The notes beneath the pieces were generated by a model, which worked only from the letters and a program-made list of their open reading frames with translations, ran no database searches and had not been told where the DNA came from. Both the position numbers and the translations under genes were made by a program. 64,000 nucleotides of DNA from Allopontixanthobacter sp. (GTDB lineage: Bacteria > Pseudomonadota > Alphaproteobacteria > Sphingomonadales > Sphingomonadaceae), in NCBI RefSeq assembly GCF_034376665.1, contig NZ_JAXMJI010000067.1:53048-117047 (forward strand), written 5' to 3'. Position 1 is the first letter of the stretch. Each line of letters opens with the position of its first letter. This document shows positions 23,920 through 53,143 of the stretch, piece after piece.

Positions 23920-24581
23920 GCCGGTCCGGCCGCGATCCGTCCAAACGGGTGAAGACCGCGAAAGGCCGCACCGCGTCCAGTGTCCGGTGGCTGGAACGCC
24001 AGCTGAACGATCCCTATGTCAAACAGGCCAAGGCGGACGGATACCGCAGCCGGGCCGCGTACAAGCTGATCGAACTGGACGAGAAATTCTCGCTGCTGCG
24101 CGGCGCGAAGCGGGTCATCGATCTGGGCATCGCGCCCGGCGGTTGGAGCCAGGTCGTGCGCAAGGTCAGCCCCAAGGCCGCGATCGTCGGTATCGATCTG
24201 CTGCCCACCGAGCCGCTCGAAGGGGTGACGATTTTCGAGATGGATTTCATGGCGCAGGACGCCCCGGCCGCGCTGGAACAGGCGCTGGACGGACCGCCCG
24301 ACCTGGTCCTGTCCGACATGGCGGCCAACACCGTCGGCCACAAGCAGACCGATCACTTGCGAACCATGGGACTGGTCGAAGCCGGGGCGTGGTTTGCGGT
24401 CGAAAACCTCGCGCCCGGCGGCGCGTTCGTGGCCAAGGTGCTGGCAGGGGGAACCGATACGGAGCTGCTCACCTTGCTCAAGCGGCACTTCACCACCGTC
24501 AAGCACGCCAAGCCGCCTGCCAGCCGCAAGGGATCGTCCGAATGGTATGTCGTGGCGCAGGGGTTCAAGGGCCAGCAGTAA
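23916..24581 (+). CDS. rlmE: 23S rRNA (uridine-2'-O)-methyltransferase RlmE/FtsJ
   Basis: GTG 23916 overlaps the ppx stop (GTGA). Sequence WLERQLNDPYVKQAKADGYRSRAAYKLIELDEKF and SAM motif VIDLGIAPGGWSQV. 221 aa. Confidence 0.9.
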   Translation: MSRSGRDPSKRVKTAKGRTASSVRWLERQLNDPYVKQAKADGYRSRAAYKLIELDEKFSLLRGAKRVIDLGIAPGGWSQVVRKVSPKAAIVGIDLLPTEPLEGVTIFEMDFMAQDAPAALEQALDGPPDLVLSDMAANTVGHKQTDHLRTMGLVEAGAWFAVENLAPGGAFVAKVLAGGTDTELLTLLKRHFTTVKHAKPPASRKGSSEWYVVAQGFKGQQ

Positions 24582-45043: not shown

Positions 45044-46279
45044 TTACGCTGCCTTCCTCCGTCTGAATTTGCGCCGCCCGAGGACTGCTGCCGCGGCGAG
45101 TCCGAACAGGATCGTCATGGGCGGGGCCGGAACCGGGGTGCCGCTGGTCGATCCGTGACCGCCCGAAGTGGTCATTCCGGAAGTGCTCGTCACATTGCCC
45201 GAGGTGGACGATGACGAGGACGAGGAAGTGGACGAGGAGGTCGAACTGCTGGTCGAGGTCGAGCTGGTGACATTGCCCGAGGTCGACGTGCTGGTGGAGA
45301 TGTTGCCCGAGGTGGACGACGAAGTCGAAGAGCTGCTGGAAACACTGCCGGAGGAACTACTCGAGACGTTCCCCGAGGAACTGCTCGAGACGTTGCCGGA
45401 AGTCGAGGAGCTGGCGTTATTGCCGGAACTGCTCGAAACGTTTCCCGAACTGGTCGAAACGTTTCCCGAACTGCTCGAAACGTTACCCGAACTGGTCGAG
45501 GTCGAGGTCGAACTGGTCACACCCCCGGTGGACGTGCTCACCCCTCCGGTCGAAGTAGAGACTCCGCCGGTCGATGTGGAAATCCCGCCAGTGGAGGTGC
45601 TGACGCCGCCGGTCGTGGTCGAACTCCCGCCGGTGGAGGTGGAGGTCGAACTCCCCCCGGTCGAAGTCGAGCTTCCGCCGGTTGACGTCGATGTTGACGT
45701 GCCGCCCGACGAATTATCGATATCGATGATGATGCCGCCGCCCGAAGAGGATGATCCGCTGGTGGAGGTTGAAGTGGTGGAGGTGATATTCACGCTACCG
45801 CCGCTCGAACCGCCGCCGCCGAAAAAGCCCCCGAAGAAGCCGCCGCCAAATCCGCCGCCAAATCCGCCGCTGCCGCCGATCACGGTCACATCACCGCCGC
45901 CGCCGCCCTGAAACGGGGGCAGCGGGGGGAGCGGTGCCGGGACCGCCGCATAAGCCATCCGGTAAGCCGGTGCACAATGTTCGCTGCCCTCGATGATTAC
46001 GCCGTCTGCGCCGCGTGGCAATACGCCGCCCGGGCCGACCGGCTCGCATTCCACCACCCGCCTGACGATGCGGCGCTTGCGCGTGACGGTCTTGGGCACG
46101 CTGCGTTCGGCAGTGCGCTGCTTCACATATTTAACCGGCTGGGCCTTGACCGACTTGCCGGATGCGATGTGCATGCTTGCTGCCGCCGGCTTTTCCGCCA
46201 CATGGACCGCGCCGCCCGCAAGCAGCGCGCCGCCGGCTGCGGTTGCGGACAATTTCGCCAGGGCCATCTTTACCGACAT
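45044..46279 (-). CDS. Secreted Ser/Thr/Gly-rich repetitive protein with a PEP-CTERM-like C-terminal anchor
   Basis: Signal-like N-terminus MSVKMALAKLSATAAGGALLAGGAVHVA. A Gly/Phe block is followed by heptad repeats GGVSTST and SGNVSSS. The tail is PVPAPPMTILFGLAAAAVLGRRKFRRRKAA. Start could be 46279 or 46267. Confidence 0.7.
   Translation of the reverse strand: MSVKMALAKLSATAAGGALLAGGAVHVAEKPAAASMHIASGKSVKAQPVKYVKQRTAERSVPKTVTRKRRIVRRVVECEPVGPGGVLPRGADGVIIEGSEHCAPAYRMAYAAVPAPLPPLPPFQGGGGGDVTVIGGSGGFGGGFGGGFFGGFFGGGGSSGGSVNITSTTSTSTSGSSSSGGGIIIDIDNSSGGTSTSTSTGGSSTSTGGSSTSTSTGGSSTTTGGVSTSTGGISTSTGGVSTSTGGVSTSTGGVTSSTSTSTSSGNVSSSSGNVSTSSGNVSSSSGNNASSSTSGNVSSSSSGNVSSSSSGSVSSSSSTSSSTSGNISTSTSTSGNVTSSTSTSSSTSSSTSSSSSSSTSGNVTSTSGMTTSGGHGSTSGTPVPAPPMTILFGLAAAAVLGRRKFRRRKAA
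45150..45910. repeat. Low-complexity coding repeats with 21-nt periodicity over about 45330-45700
   Basis: A degenerate 21-nt unit ending ..CCGCCGGT.. recurs, encoding GGxSTST. A second 21-nt family encodes SGNVSSS. Confidence 0.8.
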
Positions 46280-46511
46280 GAGCAGGCTCTCTTGTTGCTT
46301 CCGGGTAGCGCGGGTTCCGGCAGCAGCACATCCGCCAGTCCGCACTTCCCTGTCCGGGCAACAGACGTCGGCGCCCGGCAACCCGCAACCGGATTAACCA
46401 TGAATTGAGCCGCTTTGGCGAGATGGGCGGGTCCGGAGTGGCCGCGTCTGGCCGAGATGTCCCACAATGAAACCGATCAGGCAGCAATTCCTGTCCGGCC
46501 TGGCCCCCGCG

Positions 46512-47567
46512 TTAACCTTTGCCGTCGAACAATCCGGTCTGCCGATTCGGTTCTTCGCCCGGTTTGGGGGCTGGCGGCGGGGTCATGTCCAGATGCTGCC
46601 ACGCCAGATCGTTCAGGCACCGCCCCCGCGCGGTGCGGGCGATCAGGCCAAGCTGGATCAGATAGGGTTCGATCACTTCTTCCACCGTGTCGCGCGGTTC
46701 GCTGAGGCCCGCGGCGAGCGTTTCGACGCCCACCGGACCGCCCTTGTAGATCTCCGCGATCATCATCAGATAGCGCCGGTCCATCGCATCGAGGCCCAGC
46801 CGGTCGACCTCCAGCCGGGTCAGCGCCTCGTCCGCAACCTTTGCGGTTACCGACCCGTCCCCCGCCACATGGGCGAAATCGCGCACGCGGCGCATCAGCC
46901 GCCCGGCCACCCGCGGAGTGCCGCGCGCCCGGCGGGCAATCTCGCGCGCGCCGCCCGTTTCGATCTTCATTGCCAGCAGCCCGGCCCCGCGAGTCACCAC
47001 CCGTTCCAGTTCCGCCTCGGTATAGAAATTGAGCCGGACGGGAATGCCGAACCGGTCGCGCAGCGGCGTGGTCAGCAGCCCCTGCCGCGTCGTCGCGCCG
47101 ATCAGGGTGAACGGCGGCAGATCGATCCGGACCGAGCGCGCCGATGGCCCCTCGCCGATGATCAGATCGAGCGCGCGATCCTCCATCGCCGGGTAGAGGA
47201 TCTCCTCCACGACCGGATTGAGCCGGTGGATCTCGTCGATGAACAGAACGTCATGCGGCTCCAGATTGGTCAGCAGCGCGGCCAGATCGCCCGATTTGGC
47301 TATGACCGGGCCGGAAGTGGCGCGGAAACCGACGCCGAGTTCGCGCGCGACGATCTGCGCCAGAGTGGTCTTGCCCAGCCCCGGCGGGCCGAAGAACAAC
47401 ACATGGTCCATCGCCTCCCCACGCCCGCGCGCCGCCTCGATAAACACCCGCAGATTATCCCGCGCCGCCTCCTGCCCGACAAATTCGGCAAGGCTTTTGG
47501 GACGCAGGGCTGCATCCGGATCTTCCGGCTGGCGGTCAGCCGCATGAAGGGGGGTGGGGGAGGTCAT
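46512..47567 (-). CDS. ruvB: Holliday junction branch-migration helicase RuvB
   Basis: 351 aa. Walker [21 protein letters not shown] and the RuvB C-terminal winged helix. Confidence 0.95.
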
Positions 47568-48226
47568 GCGCTTAACAAATCAAAGTCCGCTAGGTTTTCA
47601 GCGTCCAAAACGGCCTCTCCGATTCCAGATGCCATCGTTATCTCAGGGTCTTCGCCGCATACTCCTGACCAACGACAAACGATCAACGACTGAATTGAGG
47701 GGAGGAGCAATGCATGTGACCGTGTTACTCGCACTAAGTCATCGACCCATGATCTGTATTTGGCCCATTCAAACGGAACTACTTGCTCCTCAAGCACCTT
47801 CTGCGCGGAGGGTACATGGAGGATGTTGGCACACTGCCCATAAACTCGATTGAGAGCCAAAAGTGGTATGGGCTTCATTGCCGGAACAAACTGCTTTGCA
47901 CCGTGCTCATCAACGCTGATGTACAACTGCAGAGGCATCGGCAACGGATGCTGATTGAATTTCTCAAGCTCCTTAAACGCGTCCTTCGGATGCCAGTGCT
48001 TGGGGTCCAATTCTGTGCCCTCCTGCAAATGTGCGAGTGTAGATCCGAGTACAATAAGTTCACAAACTTTTCGGACTTGCAAAGCAACAGAATCCAATCG
48101 CAACCAGTTCTCTCTGTGCTCCTTGTTTTCGTCGATTTGGGTCAGAAGCGAACTTGCCGCAGATAACCTGCCAATGAGTGAATGCATCACTGTGGGATAG
48201 TGAGCCTCGATTGATGCCGCATCCAT
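47564..48226 (-). CDS. Hypothetical protein (orfX), 220 aa, low-GC, no recognised domain
   Basis: ATG 48226 shares TGATG with the parE stop. The stop shares ATGA with the ruvB start. Composition is balanced and protein-like. Local G+C is about 49%. Confidence 0.6.
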
Positions 48227-48531
48227 CACCCCGCCCCTCCCTTCAGCGCCATATTGGCATCCATCGCATGGTGAACAATGCGCACAATCAGCACCGCGTT
48301 GCCCTCGACTTGATAAAATATCCGGTGCTGGCGGTGAACAAGGCAACGGATACCCTTGCCGAGCTCAGGGTTGAGCGGCGCGGACAGGGGAAAGTCACCC
48401 AGCAGGCCGAAGGCTTCGTCGAACCCATGCATGTAAGCCTCCGCAACTCCTTCGCCGAATCTGGAAGCGCTGAATTCATCGATTTCCACCAGGTCCGTTT
48501 CGGCAGCGTTGGAGAATTCGACCTCAGCCAC
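48226..48531 (-). CDS. parE: Type II toxin, ParE/RelE superfamily
   Basis: GTG 48531 overlaps the parD stop by 8 nt. 101 aa. N-terminal AETDLVEIDEF and C-terminal HRIFYQVEGNAVLIVRIVHHAMD are typical of ParE. Confidence 0.8.
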   Translation of the reverse strand: MAEVEFSNAAETDLVEIDEFSASRFGEGVAEAYMHGFDEAFGLLGDFPLSAPLNPELGKGIRCLVHRQHRIFYQVEGNAVLIVRIVHHAMDANMALKGGAG

Positions 48532-48775
48532 GCCTTGCGCGCCGTTTGGCGATGATATTGTCGATGATCGTTTCCGGCTTTTCCTTCGAAATGCCCGACG
48601 CCAGCCCCTCCGCAATCAATGCGCGGAGCCATTCGGTTTCATCGGCGGCCGATTCCTGATCGCGGCGCAGCAGATCGCGAACCAGATCGCTGGCGCTGGA
48701 ATAGCGGCCTTCGGCAACCCGGTGATCGATCCAGCTACGCAGAGCGGGCGGAATGGAGACATTAAGCTGTGACAT
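48524..48775 (-). CDS. parD: Type II antitoxin, ParD (CopG/RHH) family
   Basis: MSQLNVSIPPALRSWIDHRVAEGRYSSASDLVRDLLRRDQE matches the ParD/COG3609 N-terminus. 83 aa. Confidence 0.85.
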   Translation of the reverse strand: MSQLNVSIPPALRSWIDHRVAEGRYSSASDLVRDLLRRDQESAADETEWLRALIAEGLASGISKEKPETIIDNIIAKRRARRG

Positions 48776-48800
48776 GGAATTACCATACATATTCATAGAG

Positions 48801-48815
48801 ATTTGTCGAACAAAT
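48801..48815. promoter_or_regulatory. Inverted repeat ATTTGT-CGA-ACAAAT in the AT-rich spacer upstream of parD (candidate autoregulatory operator)
   Basis: A 6-3-6 inverted repeat read from the 48-bp ruvA/parD spacer. Confidence 0.3.
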
Positions 48816-48823
48816 ATAGGAAA

Positions 48824-49426
48824 TCACCCCGCAGCCCTCTTCAGGGCCACCCGCACCAGCGCGTTCAAATCCGCATCCTCGCCCAATTCGCCTTGCGCCT
48901 TGGCCACCGCGCTGGCGGCTACAGCCGGCTTGAAGCCGAGGTTCTGCAACGCCGAGACTGCATCCGCGCTGGCGGAGCCGGCGGGCATCACCACTGTGCC
49001 CACTGCAGCGCCGCCGCCGGGCATTCCGCCCGCCTTGTCTTTCAGTTCGTTGACGATCCGCGCTGCCAGTTTCGGCCCCACGCCGTTCGCCCGAGCCACC
49101 ATCGCTGCATCGCCATTGGCGCAGGCGGTCTGGACTTCAGCGGTTGAAAGCGCGGACAGGATCGCAAGCGCGACTTTGCTGCCCACGCCCTGCACCTGGG
49201 TCAGCAGGCGGAACCAGTCGCGTTCCGATCCTTCCGCGAAACCGAGCAGGCGCATGTCGTTTTCGCTTACCTGCAGGTCCGTATAGACGGTGCAGCTTTC
49301 GCCGATCCCGCCCAGCGCGGTCAGCGTCCGGGCGCTGCAATGCACCAGATATCCGACGCCCTGGACGTCAATCACAGCCCAGTCCGAACCGGTTTCGTCG
49401 AGCAGGCCCTTCAACTTCGCAATCAT
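48824..49426 (-). CDS. ruvA: Holliday junction DNA-binding protein RuvA
   Basis: Start at MIAKLKGLL (ATG 49426). HhH segment [15 protein letters not shown]. 200 aa. Confidence 0.92.
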
Positions 49427-49515
49427 GGTTTGTTCTTGCGCGCAAAGCTGCGCCTGGTCCACCCTTTACGGACATTTATGGACAGCGCGGCGATCATGCG
49501 ACAAGGAATGCAGCC

Positions 49516-52495: not shown

Positions 52496-53143
52496 TCAGC
52501 CTTCGTCCGTTTCATCGAGGATCCAGTCCGGCGCGGCCGAGGTCACATCGCGGCGGAAGGTCCAGATGTCGCGCGTTTCGATCGCATCGTCCAGCGAACC
52601 GGCAATCATCGTGCCGTCCTTGTCGCGCGTCACGGCAGCGATATCAGCCACGAAGCGTACTGCGACACGGGCGGTCCGGCCGTCCAGTTCGGCGCTGTGG
52701 ATCACCGTGTCCTCGATCCGGATCAACCGATTGTCGAGCGTTTCGCCGGCTTTCTCCCGCGCGTCGATCGCGCCGGCGAAACTGGCGTAGACATCATCAT
52801 CGCACAATTCGCGAAGCGCAGCCTTGTCGCCGTTCCAGAACGCTTCCAGAACCATCGCGTAAGCCGCCTTGGCCCCTTCCAGGAAAGCGGTGATGTCGAA
52901 CCGGCGATCGGCAGCGGCGATCTCGCGTACGCCCTGCTCCACTGCCGGCAGCACGCCGATCAACTCGCGCGGGCGCGGCATTGCAGCCTGCGCCGCCTGC
53001 GGCAGAGTTGGCGGAGCTAGCTGGTCATCGAACCGGGTCGGAATCGATTCCTCCTCATGCTCCGCGCGGCGGCCGAGTACCGAATACAGCCGCATGCCGA
53101 GAAAAGCGGCGATCATGGCGAGGATGACGATTTGAATTATCAC
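52496..53143 (-). CDS. Tim44-like domain protein with N-terminal TM helix
   Basis: 215 aa. TM helix MIIQIVILAMIAAFLGM, then a Tim44-type C-terminal domain. Divergent from secB, a common alphaproteobacterial arrangement. Confidence 0.8.
   Translation of the reverse strand: MIIQIVILAMIAAFLGMRLYSVLGRRAEHEEESIPTRFDDQLAPPTLPQAAQAAMPRPRELIGVLPAVEQGVREIAAADRRFDITAFLEGAKAAYAMVLEAFWNGDKAALRELCDDDVYASFAGAIDAREKAGETLDNRLIRIEDTVIHSAELDGRTARVAVRFVADIAAVTRDKDGTMIAGSLDDAIETRDIWTFRRDVTSAAPDWILDETDEG

Follow-up and report, generated by a model that had tools for sequence, protein, structure and literature searches.

The genes ruvA and ruvB, which encode the two subunits of the RuvAB branch-migration motor, are separated by about 1.26 kb in a 64-kb stretch of DNA from Allopontixanthobacter sp. 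(contig NZ_JAXMJI010000067.1), referred to below in its full length as the window. Five genes lie head to tail here on the minus strand. The first, ruvA (48824-49426), is intact and encodes 200 amino acids (aa) with the Pfam domains RuvA_N, HHH_5 and RuvA_C. After a spacer of 48 nt (48776-48823) come parD (48524-48775), for a ribbon-helix-helix ParD-family antitoxin of 83 aa counted from its conserved ATG; parE (48226-48531), which starts with GTG and encodes a 101-aa toxin of the ParE/RelE fold; and orfX (47564-48226), for a 220-aa protein of an unnamed family equal to phrog_13799. The last gene, ruvB (46512-47567), is likewise intact (351 aa; Pfam RuvB_N, AAA_lid_4 and RuvB_C). The interval is probably an accessory islet built in two layers, orfX and then parDE, at a recurrent insertion site inside the ruvAB operon.

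The reading frames are tightly joined. parD and parE overlap by 8 nt (GTGGCTGA, 48524-48531), the parE stop and the orfX start share TGATG (48224-48228), and the orfX stop and the ruvB start share ATGA (47564-47567). The gene coordinates and all three junction strings of an original prediction, made by a model from the letters of the sequence, were reproduced to the base, and with them its observation that ruvB starts within the stop of a foreign gene. The ruvA-ruvB interval contains parD, parE and orfX, with no integrase or recombinase gene and no tRNA target. A test for an integrase island was negative, the sole repeat flanking the insert being a 27-nt copy of the ruvA tail. No RNA genes or elements were found with Rfam between 46000 and 50000 (E ≤ 0.1), and terminator-like hairpins are not enriched in the interval (5, compared with 3.2 ± 1.9 in shuffled sequences).

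The GC content of orfX is 0.498, below that of all 1267 sliding 663-bp windows of the 64 kb (mean 0.636, sd 0.027; z = -5.1), and that of parDE, 0.589, falls in the lowest 4%. At third codon positions (GC3) the values are 0.53 for orfX, 0.65 and 0.67 for parD and parE, and 0.78 and 0.81 for ruvA and ruvB. The hand counts that had first suggested foreign DNA, 118 G+C in 240 nt (47881-48120) and 39 in 60 nt of ruvB (47401-47460), were exact, and the windowed calculation bears out the suggestion that the insert is compositionally foreign.

It had been assumed that ruvA and ruvB are normally adjacent. A RuvB scan of species-representative genomes gave an unbiased sample of 80 alphaproteobacterial loci, chosen regardless of the gap, of which 75 hold both genes. 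The gap was at most 150 bp in 45 of these, 151-400 bp in four and more than 400 bp in 26. Where RuvB is at least 75% identical to that of the window, a proxy for the level of the Sphingomonadales, the gap exceeds 400 bp in 11 of 14 loci, so that in this order the two genes are usually not adjacent. Seven of the 26 large gaps hold toxin-antitoxin modules, which fall into four kinds and all run in the direction of ruvAB: ParDE in L006, MazE/AbrB-PIN in L040, L050 and L082, Phd-PIN in L062 and L069, and DUF5397 with a Cas2/VapD-like gene in L007. Among the remaining cargo are GIY-YIG nucleases, DsrE-like proteins of the secreted type, proteins of the GFA family and several low-GC orphans. In most loci with an occupied gap ruvB begins with ATGA, GTGA or TTGA, most commonly as ATG-ACx (L015 and L082 are exceptions), and 4-nt overlaps recur because the ruvB start carries a TGA that ends any in-frame ORF upstream. 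The ruvA-ruvB junction is a recurrently used, integrase-free insertion site; no description of toxin-antitoxin modules or of a hotspot within ruvAB was found in the literature.

The family to which orfX belongs occupies this site repeatedly. At least 12 further lineages of Alphaproteobacteria carry orfX by itself between ruvA and ruvB. The loci with orfX and no parDE include L001/L002/L094, L003 and L088-L090, as well as the metagenome loci L091, L092 and L098-L100; in these orfX overlaps both neighbours, its start with the ruvA stop and its stop with the ruvB start. Distant members are found between ruvA and ruvB in L101 (orfX about 28% and RuvA 49% identical) and in L107 (orfX about 23% identical), where the cluster reads yebC-DUF559-ruvC-ruvA-orfX-ruvB-ybgC-tolQR. 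In all orfX loci except L101, orfX directly abuts ruvB and any extra cargo lies on the ruvA side. This cargo is a DsrE-like gene in L093 and an alpha/beta hydrolase gene in L095; in L096 a ParD-like remnant (37% identical), without parE and with repeats resembling miniature inverted-repeat transposable elements (MITEs) on both sides, is found upstream of a 45%-identical orfX. Across the orfX lineages GC3 is 0.42-0.57 for orfX, compared with 0.72-0.97 for ruvA and ruvB. The form with all three genes was seen only in the closest relatives, L085, L086 and L087 (orfX 87-91% identical), and orfX itself was present in none of the 80 loci of the unbiased sample, including the 14 closest to the window. 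On the question whether the insert is specific to the strain, raised with the original prediction, the three-gene form is indeed confined to a small clade, and orfX alone is widespread. The trio is not universal at native GC among related genomes: it is limited to this clade, and the insert is low in GC everywhere.

Individual loci have further features. The sharpest contrast in composition is that of L101 (576-1271), with a GC3 of 0.48 for orfX against 0.95 for ruvA and 0.97 for ruvB; this locus has a Peptidase_M19 gene on the opposite strand between orfX and ruvB, and an M19 peptidase is also found in the gap of L015. In L107 the gene between yebC and ruvC (2495-2851) encodes a DUF559 (Vsr-like) endonuclease. 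The orfX homologue of L099 (2803-3372) and L100 (756-1016), contigs from two samples, is split by an in-frame stop and looks like a decaying copy. A cytidine/deoxycytidylate-deaminase-like gene of native GC, encoding 141-157 aa, fills gaps of about 430-510 bp in L032, L039, L042, L051 and L060. These five related loci come from Alphaproteobacteria other than Sphingomonads, and in them the gene resembles an older occupant of the slot that has become fixed. Small GIY-YIG genes or repeats resembling repetitive extragenic palindromes (REPs) or MITEs lie in the gaps of L008 (4591-4971, minus strand), L044 (4406-4768, minus strand), L041 (4018-5004) and L093 (about 2540-2620), and the two repeat copies on either side of the ParD-like remnant of L096 are at 783-880 and 1208-1305. 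These palindromic repeats translate as MLNLFQHP, MLKQVQHD or SLSKD...FDKLSPN.

The product of orfX, which the original prediction could not place in any family, has no match in Pfam (E ≤ 0.1), NCBIfam or PADLOC. A search of 5.8 billion proteins yielded 25 close homologues, of which the identical one is named Allopontixanthobacter sp. and the others are from Erythrobacter and Qipengyuania. A profile search of 1.84 billion cluster representatives extended the family to 577 relatives (E ≤ 1e-3), most of which are stand-alone and 200-240 aa long. The window protein matches phrog_13799, a phage protein family with no assigned function, over residues 9-100 (6.8e-6), and so do 86 of 93 diverse family members (best 1e-45); among the 93 there is no recurring Pfam family (E ≤ 0.01) and no HEPN Pfam family. 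R52 and H171 are invariant across the family, and Y10, R20, Q50, E56, H66, Y129, C132 and H137 are kept in at least 90% of its members, which suggests a catalytic or metal site. Since the ratio of nonsynonymous to synonymous divergence (dN/dS) is 0.15-0.28, orfX is a working protein-coding gene under purifying selection.

An AlphaFold2 model of orfX made with a deep alignment is confident (predicted local distance difference test, pLDDT, 90.9; predicted TM-score, pTM, 0.89) and consists of five long helices and a small sheet. Neither single-sequence nor profile searches of the PDB linked it to a solved structure, and Foldseek gave no significant match in the PDB or in a viral library. HEPN toxins (HepT) headed the Foldseek searches with both orfX models, with probabilities up to 0.97-0.99, E values of 0.04-1 and weak target-normalised TM-scores of about 0.5-0.6. 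The conserved HEPN motif Rx4-6H was not found in the family, in which no Arg lies 4-6 residues before a conserved His. In view of the weak structural E values and the missing motif orfX was not assigned to HEPN, and no curated HEPN family matches it. Its weak likeness to HEPN toxins such as HepT of MntA-HepT and Shewanella SO_3166 would lie in an up-and-down helical bundle; unlike them it is about 90 residues longer, has an extra beta-sheet and lacks both Rx4-6H and an MNT partner gene. In one distant member, P0103 (L105, 4001-5248; 415 aa), residues 216-393 form the orfX domain, and the N-terminal region joined to it matches phrog_824 and, weakly, phrog_5702, a "Holliday junction resolvase" (8.6e-6). 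This region looks VRR-NUC-type in our reading, with its catalytic residues apparently replaced.

The assignments of the two upstream genes were borne out by profile searches. ParD matches Pfam PF03693 (ParD_antitoxin; 4.5e-7, 30.6 bits, cut-off 21) and TIGR02606 (3.4e-17, 62.2 bits, cut-off 46.2), and ParE matches Pfam PF05016 (ParE_toxin; 5e-16, 59.5 bits, cut-off 23) over profile positions 1-88 of 89. PADLOC had no match for either protein. The antitoxin precedes the toxin in one run, as it does in L085-L087 and L006. The upstream ATGs are missing from the orthologue in L086/L087, and the TIGR02606 alignment begins no earlier than residue 12; the conserved start of parD is therefore most likely the ATG at 48775 (MSQLN..., 83 aa) rather than that at 48796 (90 aa). 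A promoter scan of the spacer detected a promoter-like site with a -35 element TCGACA (48809-48804), a 16-nt spacer and a -10 element TATGGT (48787-48782), and a palindrome read directly from the sequence, ATTTGTTCGACAAAT (48815-48801), overlaps the -35 element. The arrangement TCGACA-N16-TATGGT/TATGCT, which matches the consensus, is kept in L085 and L086/L087, and the palindrome is conserved in part in L085 and L086. The -10 element ends 6 nt before the parD ATG, and the transcript may be leaderless. In comparisons with L085/L086, dN/dS is 0.12-0.29 for parD and 0.21-0.42 for parE. Both genes are thus under purifying selection, which would fit the predicted arrest of growth by this ParE through gyrase poisoning and its predicted neutralisation by ParD. 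The ParDE pair that L006 carries between ruvA and ruvB, without orfX, is 52% and 48% identical to the pair of the window. Homologues annotated as plasmid ParE/ParD, from alphaproteobacterial and Vibrio plasmids, reach 38% identity; a plasmid origin of ParE was rejected because these homologues are so distant.

The order in which the layers were laid down can be read from a footprint. The longest direct repeat found by an unbiased repeat search of 47400-49500 is a 27-nt pair, 598 nt apart, whose copies agree at 21-22 of 27 positions. The left copy is the tail of ruvA (48824-48850, minus strand), the last 27 nt of the gene, ending ...ALKRAAG*. The right copy is the tail of parE (48226-48252, minus strand), ending ...ALKGGAG*. 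Because the Pfam ParE domain stops at residue 91 of 101, the last residues of ParE appear to be an add-on, and its last seven codons (ALKGGAG*) are a diverged copy of the ruvA tail. The junction of the window was aligned with those of L003, L001, L091 and L092. L003 keeps an intact ancestral junction of ruvA tail and orfX start, GCGCTGAAG...GGGGTGATGGA, and the parE tail with the orfX start in the window (GCGCTGAAGGGAGGGGCGGGGTGATGGATGC) matches the ruvA tail with the orfX start in L003 (GCGCTGAAGAGGGCTGCGGGGTGATGGATGC). Since a remnant of the ruvA tail sits between parE and orfX, orfX abutted ruvA before parDE came. The same chimeric parE/ruvA-tail junction in L085 and L086/L087 indicates a single origin of the parDE insertion. 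An independent duplication of 52 nt of the ruvA tail, just upstream of orfX, flanks the DsrE-like insert of L093. No ruvA-tail duplicate was found directly upstream of ruvB in the other occupied gaps; only ahead of orfX, in the clade of the window and in L093, is the tail duplicated.

Approximate synonymous divergence (dS) between the window and L085 is 0.80 for ruvA, 0.72 for the 5′ end of ruvB, 0.145 for orfX, 0.49 for parD and 1.20 for parE; between the window and L086 the values are 1.16, 1.15, 0.43, 0.51 and 0.67 in the same order. The values for orfX and parD are about 2-5 times lower than those of the flanking ruvA and ruvB, and the insert thus spreads horizontally. Between orfX clades the relation is reversed: dS of orfX is saturated while that of ruvA is about 0.8-1.0. 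Being too similar within clades and too different between them, relative to its flanks, orfX bears the mark of a fixed locus at which alleles have been exchanged. The shared chimeric junction, together with dS below that of the flanks, argues that within the L085-L087 clade the three genes now travel as one block.

The dS of 1.20 for parE between the window and L085 indicates a swapped or fast-diverging allele. ParE of L085 (1378-1683) is 58% identical to that of the window (48226-48531), at a locus where RuvA is 97% and orfX 91% identical. DNA identity between the two falls to 0.5-0.7 only over the 3′ end of parD and parE, which suggests replacement of a parE allele inside the module.

Members of the orfX family are also found away from ruvA and ruvB. 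One lies beside a primase-polymerase and a DNA methyltransferase (L004), and another (L105) is in a group of small genes without annotation, not far from a UvrD helicase gene. The E. coli representative WP_021519103, which scores 123 bits against the family profile, lies between gpA (replication) and gpQ (portal) of Yersinia phage vB_YpM_50 and in the same slot of P2-like prophages in 28 complete E. coli genomes. The AT shift recurs in this homologue, with a GC3 of 0.33 compared with 0.55 for its neighbours. The gpA-gpQ slot is an anti-phage hotspot of P2-like phages, in which P2 itself carries old and tin, and WP_021519103 has been tabulated as "hypothetical" hotspot cargo (Rousset et al. 2022, PMC9122126). 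The likeness to this hotspot is that a family member is variable cargo there, AT-shifted relative to its neighbours. In contrast, orfX of the window is flanked by core genes of its own orientation and lies outside any prophage, an integrase, a cos site and phage genes all being absent from its surroundings, and a location in a defence hotspot was found for the enterobacterial homologue only. No locus was confirmed when IMG/VR was scanned with the orfX alignment or the P2-phage homologue. In L106 (95-2049) an orfX-family gene is directly upstream of a gene for a 360-aa SMC_N/AAA_15/AAA_21 ATPase, adjoining adk-secY, and the two may form a two-gene system.

A history of the islet that would account for these results runs as follows. 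The first layer would be orfX, an AT-shifted family gene lodged exactly between the ruvA stop and the ruvB start and passed between lineages, homologous recombination within the highly conserved ruvA and ruvB on either side being the most likely route. The second would be a canonical type II ParD-ParE module that later entered between ruvA and orfX, probably by homology-facilitated (one-sided-homology) illegitimate recombination. One crossover would have taken place in ruvA, and the other end would have been joined within the ruvA tail of the recipient. Such an event would leave ruvA whole, fuse the body of parE in frame to a 27-nt remnant of the ruvA tail, and keep for orfX both its ribosome-binding stretch and its TGATG overlap. 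The ruvA promoter would then drive all five genes, with a second, ParD-controlled promoter in the ruvA-parD spacer, and the overlapping stop and start codons would let ribosomes move on from parE into orfX and from orfX into ruvB. ParDE would stabilise the islet by acting as an addiction or stress module, and orfX is most likely a single-gene phage-exclusion protein or another selfish accessory protein rather than a repair factor. For orfX, phage exclusion is suggested by the location of its relatives.

Several considerations weigh against this history. Co-transcription, the parD promoter and translational coupling are read from the sequence, and it is from the repeat footprint that the mechanism of recombination has been reconstructed. 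The contigs of L085-L087 are short and metagenomic, and chimeric assembly could distort the comparison of divergence, with the qualification that L086 and L087 come from two independent runs and agree; dS across genes of very different GC3 is in any case an approximate measure. With respect to phage exclusion, PADLOC gave no match to orfX and three scattered single hits among the 93 family members, and no anti-phage test of any member, including WP_021519103, was found in the literature. Finally, preservation of the order ruvA-orfX-ruvB down to about 23% identity also fits a genuine functional link to RuvAB. orfX would in that case be a true accessory subunit or regulator of the motor, placed there by function. 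The order with overlapping codons on both sides is kept over orfX identities from 91% to about 23%, in genomes with RuvA as little as about 49-57% identical; orfX clings to ruvB, L101 excepted, while new cargo enters on the ruvA side (L093, L095, L096 and the window); and P0103 joins an orfX domain to a weak match to a Holliday junction resolvase. We nevertheless regard such a role as unlikely. A subunit of the motor would not be expected to be so patchy (0 of 80 unbiased loci), to show so extreme and persistent a GC3 deficit, to be discordant in dS with its ruvA and ruvB flanks, to occur on phages and mobile elements outside any ruv context (L004, L105, L106 and the P2-like prophages), or to be interrupted by a stop in L099/L100. 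P0103 is the one instance of such a fusion, and in our reading its N-terminal region has apparently lost the expected catalytic residues of a nuclease to substitution.

The original prediction had treated parD, parE and orfX as one low-GC cassette. Taken literally, this would mean a single acquisition and a working unit, possibly a three-component toxin-antitoxin system, and the tight coupling of the three genes, the block with identical junctions common to three lineages whose RuvA is only 76% identical, its dS below that of the flanks, and the ParD-like remnant just upstream of orfX in L096 are what it would lead one to expect. It is very improbable in view of the many orfX copies, the majority, that have no parDE, the ParDE pair of L006 that has no orfX, the unequal GC3 (0.65-0.67 for parD and parE vs 0.53 for orfX) and the ruvA-tail remnant that separates parE from orfX. 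Moreover, parE has been replaced or has diverged independently in L085 (ParE 58%, orfX 91% identical), and the remnant in L096 lies between MITE-like repeats and lacks parE. There is almost nothing left to recommend the view of orfX as a decaying or spurious reading frame in low-GC DNA that is non-coding filler or the remnant of a mobile element. The lack of a Pfam, NCBIfam or PADLOC family and the in-frame stop of one lineage would fit it, and in our view it has already been refuted by full-length homologues in hundreds of clusters, by dN/dS and polar residues conserved family-wide, and by the confident structure model. A more ambitious proposal accepts the islet and goes further. The orfX family (phrog_13799) would be a new single-gene phage-exclusion or abortive-infection system whose alphaproteobacterial branch has been purposely wired into the ruvAB operon, its synthesis tied by the ribosome to the Holliday-junction motor, so that the protein could sense the activity of RuvAB or the recombination intermediates of phages, or turn either to its own use; throughout the class, the ruvA-ruvB junction would then serve as an "operon-internal defence slot" that needs no integrase and takes in toxin-antitoxin modules as well. 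As a whole this is decidedly doubtful.

Type II toxin-antitoxin systems of the ParD-ParE kind include parDE of plasmid RK2 and the chromosomal ParDE pairs of Caulobacter crescentus. The pair of the window resembles them in the position of parD upstream of parE, the overlapping ORFs, the full length of both domains, and the promoter-like site and palindrome before parD. It differs in lying inside a DNA-repair operon, 27 nt after the ruvA stop (48 nt when counted from the ATG at 48775), in the C-terminus of ParE, which is chimeric with the tail of RuvA, and in the parE stop, which overlaps the start of an unrelated gene that in turn overlaps ruvB. In the dinB-yafN-yafO-yafP operon of E. coli, which is controlled by LexA, a toxin-antitoxin pair is co-transcribed with a DNA-damage gene. 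In both cases a type II module is co-oriented within a repair or damage-tolerance operon. In dinB-yafNOP, however, the module follows the repair gene, whereas in the window it splits two subunits of one machine, at a site that holds interchangeable modules in different genomes. The window also lacks the alphaproteobacterial LexA box GTTCN7GTTC upstream of ruvA: no match, with one mismatch allowed, was found between 49427 and 49600, and SOS control of the operon was rejected on this ground.

Bacterial chromosomes contain hot spots in which accessory and defence genes are flanked by core genes. Like these, ruvA and ruvB enclose variable, AT-shifted and exchanged cargo rich in toxin-antitoxin and nuclease genes. 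Unlike them, the site is a junction within the operon for a single complex, and its cargo is small (0.4-2.6 kb) and free of integrases, and as a rule runs in the direction of the operon and meets ruvB in a 4-nt overlap. Hot spots known so far are situated at tRNA genes or between operons, and one inside an operon with stop/start overlaps is unusual. ParDE itself is ordinary; what is new is an integrase-free slot in ruvAB used across the class, the ruvA-tail footprints, and an AT-shifted family that links the slot to the P2 hotspot. The generalised form of the finding is of more interest than an oddity of one strain. In about a third of the sampled Alphaproteobacteria the ruvA-ruvB junction holds toxin-antitoxin modules and AT-rich accessory genes, and, if the coupling suggested by the overlaps holds, RuvB synthesis would depend on translation of a foreign gene. 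The footprints offer a concrete, testable model for the entry of cargo without breaking the operon. The 577 clusters form a large uncharacterised family with a confident fold that has no significant match in the PDB, conserved Arg, His, Cys and Glu residues, and a representative in E. coli (WP_021519103).

Over the whole window, GTTCN7GTTC with one mismatch allowed occurs 60 times, compared with 38.9 ± 6.5 in shuffled sequences, and there are perfect copies at 23994-24008 and 52838-52852. Directly downstream of ruvB, on the minus strand, lies a low-complexity ORF of 445 aa rich in Ser, Thr and Gly (45044-46381), which includes three 21-nt tandem units (45436-45492). It has no Pfam match; its C-terminus, a hydrophobic stretch followed by RRKFRRRK, resembles a PEP-CTERM tail. 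The ORF is absent from L088, where aconitase comes directly after ruvB, and in L101 ruvB is followed by a PEP_exosort_dom gene.

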